This document shows, one piece after another, positions 17,772 through 36,995 of a stretch of DNA of 64,000 bases. A program made the translations under genes and the position numbers. The stretch is from Candidatus Aenigmatarchaeota archaeon (GTDB taxonomy: Archaea > Aenigmatarchaeota > Aenigmatarchaeia > Aenigmatarchaeales > Aenigmatarchaeaceae), in the NCBI GenBank assembly GCA_043814985.1, contig JBDRJK010000001.1, forward strand, positions 28,083-92,082, given 5' to 3'. The notes beneath the pieces are model-generated. The model saw only the letters and a list, made by a program, of their open reading frames with translations. It was not told where the DNA came from and did no database searches. Each line of letters begins with the position of its first letter. Position 1 is the stretch's first letter.

Positions 17772-17845
17772 GGGGCAGTAGCTCAGCCTGGGAGAGCGCA
17801 CGGCTGAAGACCGTGATGTCGCGTGTTCAAATCACGCCTGTCCCA
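17772..17845 (+). tRNA. trnF: tRNA-Phe(GAA), no intron, CCA not encoded
   Basis: Acceptor stem GGGGCAG/CTGTCCC, anticodon arm CACGG-CTGAAGA-CCGTG, T arm GCGTG-TTCAAAT-CACGC. Confidence 0.97.
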
Positions 17846-17881
17846 CTTATTTTTTAATCTTTAAAATCCAATTTTTAGTAT

Positions 17882-18433
17882 ATGTTTCTTCGTATAGTGC
17901 CGGTCAGCAACATAGCCCAGGGCATATTGGACAAGGTACGAAACGACCTGGAGAGCAACCTGAACATAAAGTGCAGGATAATGCCGGGACTCCAGCTTCC
18001 CGAGGGCTCATTCAACAGGTGGAGAAAGCAGTACAATGCAGAAGTGATACTCAGTCTGCTGTCTGAAAAGTCAGCAGTCAAGTTCATAGACAAGAACATC
18101 CCGACCTTACTGATAACTGACGTTGACCTCTATTACGGTGGCCTGAACTTCGTTTTCAGCCTGGAATATCCTGCAAAGAGCTCTGCCATTGTCTCTATCA
18201 CAAGACTGAGACCAGAGTTCTACGACGAGAGAGCCAACATGAACCTTCTCGGTGATAGGACTGTCAAGGAGGTCATACATGAGATAGGGCACCATCTCAG
18301 CTTGGGGCACTGCTGCAACACATGGTGTGTCATGTGCTTTTCCCCATCTGTAGGAGACATCGACATAAAGCAAAAGTATTTTTGCGAGAACTGCAAGATT
18401 AAACTAATGACAAGAGGAATAAACATAGGTTGA
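17882..18433 (+). CDS. amzA: Archaemetzincin zinc metalloprotease
   Basis: HEIGHHLSLGHC-x4-CVM motif and C-terminal FCENC; RQYNAE-like N-terminal motif. Confidence 0.92.
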   Translation: MFLRIVPVSNIAQGILDKVRNDLESNLNIKCRIMPGLQLPEGSFNRWRKQYNAEVILSLLSEKSAVKFIDKNIPTLLITDVDLYYGGLNFVFSLEYPAKSSAIVSITRLRPEFYDERANMNLLGDRTVKEVIHEIGHHLSLGHCCNTWCVMCFSPSVGDIDIKQKYFCENCKIKLMTRGINIG

Positions 18434-18437
18434 TTTT

Positions 18438-19022
18438 ATGGTTACCGAAACTGTTTTAGTAAGAATTGTTGAAGAATATGTGTTTAGTAATCCTCCTCCT
18501 AGAGACATTCTTTACCTTAGTCATGTAGATTCTGTCAGAAATTATGCTTTATTGTTGGCGTCAAAAATAAAGTCTGACAAACTGGTAGTAGAATTAACAG
18601 CTCTACTTCACGATATTGGAAAAACAAAGGATTTGAAAAACCACCATATAGAAAGTGCAAAAATAGCAGAACCACTTCTGAGGAAACATGGTTGTGATGA
18701 AAAAACAATACAAAAGGTCGTCAATTGTATTCTAACTCACAGAGCCGAAAGAGATGACAAAGCTGAAACAATAGAGGCTCAGATAATCAAAGACGCCGAT
18801 GGTATAGCTTTTCTGGATATTGAAACAGGCACATGGATAGCCTTTCTATATTATATGTGGTTAGAAAGAAAGCTTAGTTTTGAAGAGGGTGTGAAAAAAA
18901 CCATAATTAAAACTGAAAATATGTACGAAAAGATAGAAACAGAAGAAGGTAAGTCGATTGCTAGCTCAAATTATAATAAAATAAAAAGTCTACTCTCATT
19001 CCCAATTAAGAAAATGTTTTAA
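18438..19022 (+). CDS. HD-domain protein
   Basis: H...LHDIG...H...DAD residues; visibly more AT-rich codon usage than the flanking genes. Confidence 0.85.
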   Translation: MVTETVLVRIVEEYVFSNPPPRDILYLSHVDSVRNYALLLASKIKSDKLVVELTALLHDIGKTKDLKNHHIESAKIAEPLLRKHGCDEKTIQKVVNCILTHRAERDDKAETIEAQIIKDADGIAFLDIETGTWIAFLYYMWLERKLSFEEGVKKTIIKTENMYEKIETEEGKSIASSNYNKIKSLLSFPIKKMF

Positions 19023-19046: not shown

Positions 19047-19595
19047 ATGCCTGACAAAACTCCGAAAGCAGAACTCCAAGAAGACAAGGTAATAGTCTGG
19101 AACACGGGAGACGGCAGAAAGATATTTGACAAGGGATGGTTCGGCGAAATCTTTGATGACAGGCTGGAGCTTTCCGTAATAGAGGCCACTTACCTTCTGG
19201 AGAGGAAGAAGATCGAGATCAAGGAGGACAAGAAGAAGGTCACGCTGAAAAGCATCTACAAGCACGCCCAGAAAAGGGACAAGAGGTTCCTGATAAAATA
19301 CAATGCCTACAAGGACTTGAGAGAGAGGGGACTGCCTGTGAGGACAGGCTTCAAGTTCGGCTGCGACTTTCGAGTATACGAGAGAGGCGTATCACCAATC
19401 AAGAGGGGCCCCAAGTCTGCAAGAGAACATACTAAATGGATTGTTTTCTGCGTCTCAGAGGACTACGACTGCTCGTTCCAGGAGCTGTCAAGGGCAGTCA
19501 GGCTCGCGCACAACATAAGATCCAACATGCTCTGGGCTGTCGTGGACAATGAGGGCGACTGCACTTACTACAGCGTCACTTACATATCTCCGTAG
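19047..19595 (+). CDS. endA: tRNA-intron endonuclease (single-unit, alpha4-like)
   Basis: DLRERGLPVRTGFKFGCDFRVYERG...EH...RLAHNIR...VDNEGDCTYY aligns with the M. jannaschii-type EndA. Confidence 0.95.
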   Translation: MPDKTPKAELQEDKVIVWNTGDGRKIFDKGWFGEIFDDRLELSVIEATYLLERKKIEIKEDKKKVTLKSIYKHAQKRDKRFLIKYNAYKDLRERGLPVRTGFKFGCDFRVYERGVSPIKRGPKSAREHTKWIVFCVSEDYDCSFQELSRAVRLAHNIRSNMLWAVVDNEGDCTYYSVTYISP

Positions 19596-19600
19596 GTTTT

Positions 19601-20743
19601 ATGATGATTGTCAAAGATATAATGTCAAAAAACGTGATTTGCCTGTCTCCTGAGGACACTGTATCAGAACTGATTTCCCTGGTGGAAAAAAATCATATAA
19701 GGGAAATCCCGATAGTGGAAAACAAGAAGCTGAAGGGCATTGTCTATTCCAAGGACATTGCAAGGAAGAATGTCACCAATCCCCAAAAGACAAAGATAGC
19801 CAAGGTTGTCAAGTCGCATCCTGCAACTGTCTCTCCCGACCAAGACATAAACGAGGCAGCTGAGCTGATATTGAAGAACGGGCTGATAGGCCTGCCTGTT
19901 GTGGAAAAGGGCAAGGTGGTCGGCATAATCTCCATGCACGACATAATAAACTTCTCCTCAAAGACAAAGCAGTTCAGGCAGACCAAAGCAGAGCAGATAA
20001 TGTCCATGCCAGAGACCATAACCAATGATGTTGACATCGGGAAGGCCAGATTGCTGATGAGGGAGAAGAACATATCAAGGCTCCCTGTTGTTGACAGCAA
20101 AAACAAGCTGTCAGGAGTTGTGACCATATTCGATCTGCTGAAGGCAGTAAAGCCAAGGGATAGAATGGGTTTCTACTCAAAAGCAGCTGAAAAGGAGACA
20201 ATGATGGGCATACCAGTGTCAACAATAATGGACAGGAATCCGGTAACTGCTGAAAGAAGCAATTCTTTGAACGAGATTGTAAGCCTGATAGACAAGAACA
20301 GGACAGACGGCATCATTGTTCTGGAGGGGGGACAACCAATCGGTGTTGTCACTGAAAAGGACCTGCTGGAAGTCTATGTTTCCAGTTTCAAGCAGAAGGG
20401 CATATTCTACCAGATAAGCGGTCTTAAGGACGAGGATGATTTCATACTAGCAACAGTTAACAGGATGATAAGGGACAGCCTGCAAAAACTAACAAAGATG
20501 ACCAAATCCGAATTCTTCTTCCTGCATGTCAAAAGGTACGATAAGAAGGGAAAGGTAAAGTACTCGATAAGGACCAGGCTGATGACTGAGAGGGGAATTT
20601 TCGTGAGCAAGTCGTACGCGTGGGACCTTAGGGAAGCTGTTGACATGTCTCTGGACAGGCTGGAAAAAATAATAATAAGAGGCAAGGAACACAAAAAGGA
20701 CAAAATAGAAGATATGTTAAGGTTTAAGAAGTTGCTAAGATAA
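19601..20743 (+). CDS. Four-CBS-domain protein with C-terminal HPF/RaiA-like domain (candidate archaeal ribosome hibernation factor)
   Basis: Four CBS repeats (VKDIMS, LPVV..GKVVGIIS, LPVV..KLSGVVT, VGVVTEKDLL). The C-terminal FLHVKRY...YSIRTRL...FVSKSYAWDLREAVDMSLDRLEKII resembles the HPF beta-beta-beta-alpha end. Confidence 0.8.
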   Translation: MMIVKDIMSKNVICLSPEDTVSELISLVEKNHIREIPIVENKKLKGIVYSKDIARKNVTNPQKTKIAKVVKSHPATVSPDQDINEAAELILKNGLIGLPVVEKGKVVGIISMHDIINFSSKTKQFRQTKAEQIMSMPETITNDVDIGKARLLMREKNISRLPVVDSKNKLSGVVTIFDLLKAVKPRDRMGFYSKAAEKETMMGIPVSTIMDRNPVTAERSNSLNEIVSLIDKNRTDGIIVLEGGQPIGVVTEKDLLEVYVSSFKQKGIFYQISGLKDEDDFILATVNRMIRDSLQKLTKMTKSEFFFLHVKRYDKKGKVKYSIRTRLMTERGIFVSKSYAWDLREAVDMSLDRLEKIIIRGKEHKKDKIEDMLRFKKLLR

Positions 20744-36885: not shown

Positions 36886-36995
36886 TGCCCCCGGAGGGAT
36901 TTGAACCCTCGGCCCCTTGATTTCTTCATCTTCGAATCAGAACTTCTAAGTTATTTAGAAGTCAAGTGCTCTAATCCAAACTGAGCTACGGAGGC
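36886..36995 (-). tRNA. trnR: tRNA-Arg(TCT) with a 34-nt canonical 37/38 intron (36922..36955)
   Basis: Acceptor stem GCCTCCG/CGGGGGC, anticodon stem CTTGA/TCAAG, T arm GAGGG-TTCAAAT-CCCTC. BHB: exon CTTC pairs with intron GAAG, with bulges TA|A and AA|A. Confidence 0.95.

Follow-up and report, generated by a model that had tools for sequence, protein, structure and literature searches.

A Lys-less active site in the tRNA-intron endonuclease EndA of an Aenigmatarchaeota archaeon, with a candidate replacement Lys in the L3 loop

The sole EndA gene detected in the genome of a Candidatus Aenigmatarchaeota archaeon very probably encodes a functional enzyme, the only EndA of its organism, with a non-canonical active site that lacks the catalytic Lys. 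The gene lies in a stretch of 64,000 nucleotides, here called the window (assembly GCA_043814985.1, contig JBDRJK010000001.1, positions 28,083 to 92,082 of the forward strand), and all coordinates below are positions in the window. The active-site variant that we describe for this well-known enzyme is real and conserved, and apparently undescribed. The mechanism with the best support, at about even odds, is a relocation of the catalytic Lys, in which an Arg at position His-5 of the L3 loop would have become Lys and taken over transition-state stabilisation, with the ancestral Lys lost afterwards.

The gene and its two domains are located as follows.

19047..19595, plus strand: endA gene, 182 aa plus stop, the sole EndA detected in the genome (Pfam/NCBIfam matches)
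19065..19253, plus strand: N-terminal EndA domain PF02778, aa 7-69 (Pfam E = 1.7e-17)
19287..19568, plus strand: C-terminal catalytic EndA domain PF01974, aa 81-174 (Pfam E = 9.6e-28)

Both domains score well above their cut-offs (PF02778, 63.1 bits against 21; PF01974, 96.5 bits against 27), as does the NCBIfam equivalog TIGR00324 endA (118.9 bits against 59.6). Among solved structures the best match by sequence using HMMER is the Nanoarchaeum equitans catalytic subunit (3iey_A, E = 7e-33), and Methanocaldococcus jannaschii EndA (1a79_A, E = 3.7e-32) is aligned to the query from end to end. An AlphaFold2 model built from an alignment of 123 rows has a mean pLDDT of 90.9, with the loop region of residues 101-130 as its least confident part (pLDDT 71-82). 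The top Foldseek match of this model is again 1a79_A (TM 0.85/0.90, E = 4.6e-18) and the remaining top matches listed are EndA/TSEN chains. The dN/dS ratio of endA against its closest ortholog (93% identical) is 0.054, indicating strong purifying selection.

The active-site positions of the protein correspond to the following codons.

19377..19379, plus strand: Tyr111, the catalytic Tyr (equivalent to MJA Y115 and NEQ Y86; alignments, Tyr in 121/121 sequences)
19428..19430, plus strand: His128, the catalytic His (equivalent to MJA H125 and NEQ H102; alignments, His in 121/121 sequences)
19521..19523, plus strand: Ser159 (codon TCC), at the canonical triad-Lys site (MJA K156, NEQ K133; alignments)
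19518..19520, plus strand: Arg158, an invariant Arg adjoining the lost Lys and a rival candidate for the compensating charge (conservation)

The sequence-only reading had assigned Ser to the K156-equivalent position, and this assignment is borne out by all five HMMER alignments to structure chains (3iey_A, 1a79_A, 5x89, 4fz2 and 1r0v), which place Ser159 opposite the first Lys of an R-K pair. In chain numbering, the NEQ205 counterparts of Tyr111, His128 and Ser159 are Tyr86, His102 and Lys133; the published triads are Y115/H125/K156 for MJA, Y86/H102/K133 for NEQ and Y246/H257/K287 for AFU (PMC2761253). Residues 157-162 read I-R-S-N-M-L and contain no Lys, and the alignments place no other canonical Lys at the triad position within this segment. 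Misalignment as the cause of the missing Lys was ruled out, with the five structure-chain alignments concordant and no Lys present within three residues of position 159. At the Ser159 codon, contigs from two DNA runs show zero differing letters, and since these runs may be the source samples, the coverage is not independent confirmation. Arg152, the equivalent of the substrate-recognition residues AFU R280 and ARMAN-2 R275 seven residues before the Lys, is present in 72/72 Lys-less and 44/44 canonical units. Because Ser159 occupies the triad-Lys position, the protein is an alpha4/L3-type EndA homologue outside the canonical-triad class.

Between the catalytic Tyr and His the protein carries a basic loop.

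19386..19427, plus strand: L3 loop, aa 114-127, a 7-residue insert relative to 1a79 (alignment; the name L3 is taken from PMC5829648)
19413..19415, plus strand: Lys123, at position His-5, candidate replacement for the triad Lys (conservation and co-variation)

In the HMMER alignment the spacing between Tyr and His is 7 residues longer than in 1a79, and the Lys/Arg-bearing insert reported earlier from the sequence is indeed found there. It is not peculiar to this protein and corresponds to the already published L3 loop (PMC5829648, PMC3488258). In the alignment with 3iey_A the insert matches NEQ-EndA residues 90-98 with one gap, the basic residues agreeing position by position. This basic insertion between Tyr and His, aligned with NEQ 90-98, groups the protein with the L3-loop-bearing DPANN EndAs of Kaneta et al. 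2018. Hirata et al. 2012 describe the NEQ-EndA loop as a specific loop common to residues 240-247 of ARMAN-2 (PMC3488258); the name L3 was introduced by Kaneta et al. 2018, who report the loop across a range of DPANN lineages, with alpha4-type enzymes among its bearers (PMC5829648). The same loop also appears in the literature as the Nanoarchaea/ARMAN-2-specific loop, and a role in substrate recognition has been proposed for its basic residues in NEQ-EndA (PMC5829648, PMC3488258). The further claim that Lys-bearing loops broaden specificity applies to CSL Lys44 (loop L1) and ASL Lys161 (loop L2), for which it is reported as experimentally shown, but both of these are different insertions located in the N-terminal part (PMC5829648, PMC3488258, PMC12397907). 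Within the L3-like loop of ARMAN-2 itself, the mutations K241A and K244A are reported to have no effect (PMC3488258).

The loss of the Lys is not special to this gene and is common to two archaeal phyla. Across 121 sequences, the query and the 120 homologues closest to it (identity 63-93%, several named Aenigmatarchaeota by their sources), position 159 holds Ala (102/121) or Ser (19/121) and in no case Lys, and the loop G-P-K is kept. Alpha-like units from the loci of 30 relatives (L005-L034) all carry Ala (26) or Ser (4) at 159 together with Lys at His-5. The same applies to 50 of 50 complete single-unit alpha-type ORFs from loci L036-L089, which have Ala (47) or Thr (3) at 159 and in which Tyr, His, Arg152, Arg158 and Lys at His-5 are all present. 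This set consists of 40 regions chosen to represent most Aenigmatarchaeota families plus loci from a search of the phylum's genomes, with the truncated locus L038 left out of the count. One locus (L062) encodes a fused two-unit EndA of 389 aa, and the triad Lys is absent from both of its units. Searching from a distant Lys-less protein (P0125) yielded 120 proteins, many of them named Nanohaloarchaea, Candidatus Nanohalobium or Candidatus Nanosalina. Lys is absent from position 159 in all 120 (Ala 113, Ser 6, Val 1) and present at His-5 in 119, the single exception being P0363 (Nanohaloarchaeota) with Asp, and the remaining loop lysines are variable. All sampled alpha-type EndAs of Aenigmatarchaeota and Nanohaloarchaeota thus have Ala, Ser, Thr or Val at position 159.

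The L3 loop also occurs together with the canonical Lys. A profile of L3-bearing canonical EndAs identified 80 named genome loci, 78 of which have the canonical Lys and are labelled Woesearchaeota, Pacearchaeota, Nanoarchaeota, Hadarchaeota, Altiarchaeota and others, and the sole two Lys-less loci are labelled Aenigmatarchaeota. L3-bearing units that have Tyr and His and keep Lys159 carry Arg at His-5 in 29/29 cases, as does NEQ205, where Arg97 is found together with Lys133. Short-loop units from the search that gave these L3-bearing units keep Lys159 in 91/91 cases. Position 159 is Thr in two further proteins (P0179 and P0249), whose loop is short, with no Lys at His-5; they represent a second, independent loss of the Lys and show that a loop Lys is not the sole route. 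In a tree built without the loop columns and the position-159 column, all L3-bearing Lys-less EndAs fall on one side of a split of 77 versus 46 rows (SH-aLRT 95, obtained with a quick method). Since the Lys-less L3 clade forms one side of a single split, the exchange between Lys and Arg at His-5 represents about one evolutionary event and not many independent ones. The co-variation of K156 loss and insert that the sequence-only reading had put forward for a check in DPANN EndAs is seen in part: Lys at His-5 tracks the loss, but as about one event common to two phyla, and the L3 loop is also found in EndAs that keep the Lys.

An unbiased comparison over all 182 query positions, using 72 Lys-less and 44 canonical units, identified 129, 123, 157, 156, 163, 159, 122 and 161 as the eight most discriminating positions. 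All eight fall in two short segments, one near the catalytic His and one near the site of the lost Lys. Lys-less and canonical units differ by Thr versus Ala/Ser at 129, Lys versus Arg or a gap at 123, Asn versus Ser at 156 and Trp versus Ile/Leu at 163. Because the discriminating positions are all located in these two active-site segments, the active site looks as if it had been remodelled in a coordinated way, unlike what drift or decay would produce.

Quaternary structure was assessed from gene content and by structure prediction. The genome has one EndA gene, and catalytic residues and assembly elements are located on one chain, as in alpha4-type enzymes. The chain has an acidic stretch (aa 167-171), assigned in this analysis as the L10 loop, and the C-terminal strand, both of which align to 1a79. 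Prediction of a four-copy complex gave a score of 0.56 compared with 0.27 for the best control; similar complexes have already been solved, so this score may come from memorised structures. In calibration, the mark was reached by 20/30 solved homo-pairs and 1/23 solved single chains. Runs agree in at least 91% of contacts with a partner pLDDT of at least 82, and the contacts with the lowest error join residues 173-182 of one copy to those of another, which corresponds to the beta9-beta9' interaction of known EndAs. The score expresses model confidence and indicates likeness to known complexes, not proof, and the enzyme is a putative homotetramer (alpha4).

The genome also encodes potential substrates and a ligase. 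With introns allowed, aragorn predicts 37 tRNA genes in the genome, 16 of them with introns, and RtcB is intact (575.8 bits). One of the intron-containing tRNA genes is located in the window.

36886..36995, minus strand: intron-containing tRNA-Arg(UCU) gene, predicted EndA substrate (RF00005, 57.4 bits, 36-position insert after the anticodon)
36922..36955, minus strand: 34-nt intron at 37/38 with a strict hBHBh' motif (strict BHB scan; coordinates derived from Rfam and the scan)

For the strict scan, the outer helix had to measure 3 bp or more, the central helix 4 bp, each of the two bulges 3 nt and the inner helix 2 bp or more. In the tRNA-Arg(UCU) of the window the outer, central and inner helices have 5, 4 and 2 bp and both bulges have 3 nt, and in-silico splicing results in a standard tRNA-Arg(UCU). 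An unconstrained RNA fold of this pre-tRNA gave no tRNA shape and was set aside. Overall, 7 of the 16 intron-predicted genes possess a strict hBHBh' motif whose in-silico excision leaves a standard tRNA according to aragorn, namely Arg(UCU) of the window, Gln(UUG), Ser(UGA), Tyr, Lys(UUU), Met and one Glu(UUC), the last being so called after splicing and called Arg(UCG) before it. Under the strict scan, 8 of the 16 aragorn intron calls have no tRNA-yielding solution and 1 is ambiguous. These may represent tRNAs with relaxed or multiple introns, or aragorn errors. Given that this is the sole EndA found, that RtcB is intact and that at least seven tRNA genes contain strict BHB motifs, the enzyme should be active.

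We propose that the gene product would be the organism's sole active tRNA/rRNA-intron (BHB) endonuclease, an alpha4-type enzyme with a DPANN L3 loop and a remodelled active site. Tyr111 would act as the general base and His128 as the general acid, as in canonical EndA, with RNase A-like chemistry leading to a 2',3'-cyclic phosphate. The positive charge at the scissile phosphate would be contributed by Lys123 of the L3 loop, at His-5, and no longer by position 159. The change would have been a single switch, made in the ancestor shared by the Aenigmatarchaeota and Nanohaloarchaeota EndAs: a loop Arg already near the substrate would have been replaced by Lys and the old Lys lost afterwards, with Thr129, Asn156, Ile157, Met161 and Trp163 changing alongside. 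In ARMAN-2 EndA, NZ of the canonical Lys is reported to hydrogen-bond the scissile phosphate (PMC12397907) and the K282A mutant to have no detectable cleavage (PMC3488258), and some positive group is therefore to be expected as a replacement. The earlier suggestion that a loop Lys replaces the triad Lys is supported by the near-invariance of Lys at His-5 in Lys-less EndAs and by Arg in 29/29 of the Lys-keeping L3 EndAs; that the substitution took place, and that Lys123 rather than another residue is the charge source, is what we infer from these patterns. Against it count the lack of effect of K241A and K244A in ARMAN-2, the Asp at His-5 of P0363, the separate Lys loss in P0179 and P0249, and the origin of the swap in about one event. 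We regard the account as the best explanation and, taken as a whole with its Lys123 step, as evenly poised between right and wrong.

The transition-state charge could also be provided by Arg158, with L3 and Lys123 merely binding RNA and widening substrate specificity, which we judge to be unlikely but the most serious of the alternatives. Arg158 is Arg in 121/121 sequences (query and 120 closest homologues) and in 71/72 Lys-less units, compared with Lys in 25, Arg in 12 and Asn in 7 of the 44 canonical units, and the role given in the literature to the basic L3 residues of NEQ-EndA is one of recognition (PMC3488258, PMC5829648). However, sister families of the same order possess two tandem EndA genes, the second of which (12 cases) is a beta-like paralog that is without His and hence incapable of catalysis. 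In these paralogs the L3 loop and Lys123 are gone along with the His, position 159 is Ala or Thr, and Arg158 is kept in 12/12, indicating that conservation of Arg158 does not track catalysis. Arg158 is moreover often present in canonical EndAs beside the Lys, and a role for it says nothing about the strict pattern at His-5, with Lys where Lys159 is missing and Arg where it is kept. It is also conceivable, if improbable, that nothing replaced the Lys and that Tyr, His and backbone amides suffice at a slower rate, tolerable for a slow-growing symbiont with few tRNAs. The short-loop proteins P0179 and P0249, which lost the Lys and have none at His-5, would fit such an enzyme, as would a contact reported for ARMAN-2, where the residue following the His likewise binds the scissile phosphate through its backbone amide (PMC12397907). 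The lack of detectable cleavage by ARMAN-2 K282A (PMC3488258) argues against it, as do the concentration of clade differences in the active site, which looks like compensation and not decay, the strong purifying selection and the near-invariance of Lys123 across two phyla.

Least probable by far, and hardly credible to us, is that the protein is a non-catalytic or specialised subunit and that a canonical EndA, for example of the epsilon2 type, is encoded in the 9% missing from the assembled genome (21 contigs totalling 808 kb, completeness 91.2%). Among 274 Aenigmatarchaeota genomes with a completeness of at least 80%, 88 encode an ARMAN-2-like epsilon2 EndA (ca. 400 aa, with the canonical Lys). 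With E-values read together, 42 of these also have a Lys-less alpha type, 46 genomes have epsilon2 only and 179 have alpha only, a few of the latter resting on weak or partial matches. Epsilon2 is, however, found in 0/15 other genomes of the family to which the window belongs and in 0/19 genomes from the rest of the order, and a single-contig genome of 875 kb (G198) has the alpha type only. Three models (PF01974, PF02778 and, for the beta subunit, NF007086), run against the window's own genome at E-values up to 10, identified no second EndA. A weak second PF01974 match on contig C19 is an ORF of metallo-beta-lactamase fold and not an EndA. In the sister families, both tandem genes are Lys-less and so neither paralog provides the canonical Lys. 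The catalytic paralog that would make this protein a non-catalytic subunit was thus found neither in the 91% complete genome nor in the family or order, and the protein retains Tyr, His and the substrate-binding Arg152.

The literature treats Tyr, His and Lys as conserved across all four archaeal EndA types and in Sen2/Sen34, and presents the triad as kept all the way from archaea to humans (PMC6379350, PMC5829648, PMC12397907). The 2025 paper on the ARMAN-2 RNA complex still takes the three as the conserved catalytic residues (PMC12397907), and the supplement of PMC5829648 has triad labels in figures only and nothing on a missing Lys. Full-text literature searches, with subscription-only papers outside their scope, returned no description of a Lys-less EndA and no paper pairing Aenigmatarchaeota with a splicing endonuclease, in keeping with the initial claim that this active-site variant is undescribed. 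If the relocation is true, L3, a loop thought only to relax substrate choice, would therefore belong to the catalytic centre, and the Tyr-His-Lys triad would not be universal in the EndA family. Two archaeal phyla appear to live on a Lys-less EndA, which represents a natural test of the role of the Lys. Some nanohaloarchaea have been grown in co-culture. The enzyme may be a case of catalytic-residue relocation and would then tie "specificity" loops directly to catalysis.

The enzyme can be compared with several known systems. It resembles the alpha4 EndA of M. jannaschii (1A79) in that one gene codes for a chain of about 180 aa carrying both domains, Tyr and His, and the two align end to end including the C-terminal strand, through which self-assembly is predicted. 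Unlike the M. jannaschii enzyme, the protein described here has Ser159 in place of Lys156 and contains the 7-residue L3 insert. Alpha4-type EndA is described as having narrow specificity (PMC6379350). The L3 loop between Tyr and His is shared with NEQ205, the catalytic alpha subunit of an (alpha-beta)2 EndA (3IEY), but NEQ205 has Lys133, carries Arg97 at His-5 where Lys123 is found here, and is 154 aa long. NEQ205 is also reported to require the structural subunit NEQ261 (PMC2761253), and no such partner was found in the genome of the window. The epsilon2 EndA of ARMAN-2 (Ca. Micrarchaeum acidiphilum; 4FZ2, 9W2K) likewise has an L3-like loop (residues 240-247) around the catalytic His, and it offers a precedent in ASL Lys161, which reaches the scissile-phosphate region and is reported to be required for cleavage (PMC3488258, PMC12397907). 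In contrast to the present enzyme, its protomer consists of three units and 390 aa, Lys282 is present and essential, the L3-like lysines are dispensable, and the functional loop Lys is located in the N-terminal L2/ASL. Crenarchaeal (alpha-beta)2 EndA (A. pernix, 3P1Z, Lys44) similarly possesses a lineage-specific loop with a conserved Lys adjoining the active site, but that loop, the CSL, is located at L1 in the N-terminal part and supplements the Tyr/His/Lys triad without replacing any part of it. WNK protein kinases lack the canonical catalytic Lys at its usual site and draw it from a neighbouring structural element. With an unrelated fold and chemistry, these kinases are an analogy only and represent a precedent for the relocation of a catalytic residue.

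The endA gene of the window (19047..19595, +), whose product carries Ser at the triad-Lys position and a candidate replacement Lys five residues before the catalytic His (His-5) in the L3 loop, lies among the following genes; the translation of each ORF was read.

17772..17846 (+), tRNA-Phe(GAA), intron-less, 1.2 kb upstream of endA
17882..18433 (+), ORF between tRNA-Phe(GAA) and endA, presumably archaemetzincin-like with an HExxHxxxGxxH-type motif
18438..19022 (+), ORF between tRNA-Phe(GAA) and endA, which we take to encode an HD-domain protein
19601..20743 (+), ORF after endA, assumed to encode a CBS-domain protein

Only 37 tRNA genes were called by aragorn in the same genome, 16 of them intron-predicted. 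A strict hBHBh' solution (outer helix of at least 3 bp, central helix of 4 bp, two 3-nt bulges and inner helix of at least 2 bp) is absent for 8 of these 16, including Trp(CCA). Examples are as follows.

Contig C19, 90142-90251
Contig C5, 7214-7329
Contig C13, 9999-10103
Contig C15, 26289-26387

The missing strict solutions combined with the low number of called genes suggest that some introns are relaxed or multiple and occupy non-canonical positions, in line with expectation for an L3-bearing enzyme. The aragorn output also contains one 'tRNA-Pyl' and two 'tRNA-Stop' calls.

Contig C1, 15164-15250, outside the window, 'tRNA-Pyl(cta)' with a CUA anticodon
Contig C13, 20278-20390, 'tRNA-Stop(tta)'
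Contig C19, 84738-84860, 'tRNA-Stop(tta)'

Both 'Stop' calls are mis-calls because BHB splicing converts the two into Gln(UUG) and Lys(UUU).

Loss of the triad Lys is also found without an L3 loop. The EndA representatives P0179, P0249 and P0203 possess Thr at this position, retain Tyr and His and have a short Tyr-His loop. In the tree, P0203 is placed together with the Lys-less clade. P0179 and P0249 are nested among canonical-Lys enzymes and, given this placement, their Lys loss is an independent event. In two relatives, one in-frame TAA each is reported in the orthologous endA frame (L015, G009:C1:26698-27243, and L038, G173:C64), with the readable part of the L038 protein comprising the N-terminal 129 aa only. 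Gene disruption, misassembly or a neighbouring ORF may account for this.

Other EndA architectures are encoded across the phylum. A canonical-Lys, ARMAN-2-like epsilon2 EndA of about 400 aa is present in 88 of 274 Aenigmatarchaeota genomes of at least 80% completeness (for example L065:2485-3666 in G048), and 42 of these 88, as counted from E-values, also encode a Lys-less alpha-type EndA with intact Tyr, His and Lys(His-5). Each of the 42 genomes therefore possesses two apparently catalytic splicing endonucleases. A fused two-unit, alpha'2-like EndA (L062, G057:C6, ORF of 389 aa) occurs in one family. Tyr and His are found in both of its units and the canonical Lys in neither; an L3 loop carrying the His-5 Lys is confined to the second unit. 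EndA genes are arranged in tandem, in sister families of the same order, at loci L020-L033. The alpha-like gene of the pair encodes Tyr, His and L3 while the beta-like gene encodes a short loop, has lost His and mostly carries Lys in place of the substrate-recognition residue Arg152. The tandem pair represents an (alpha-beta)2-like split within the Lys-less clade.
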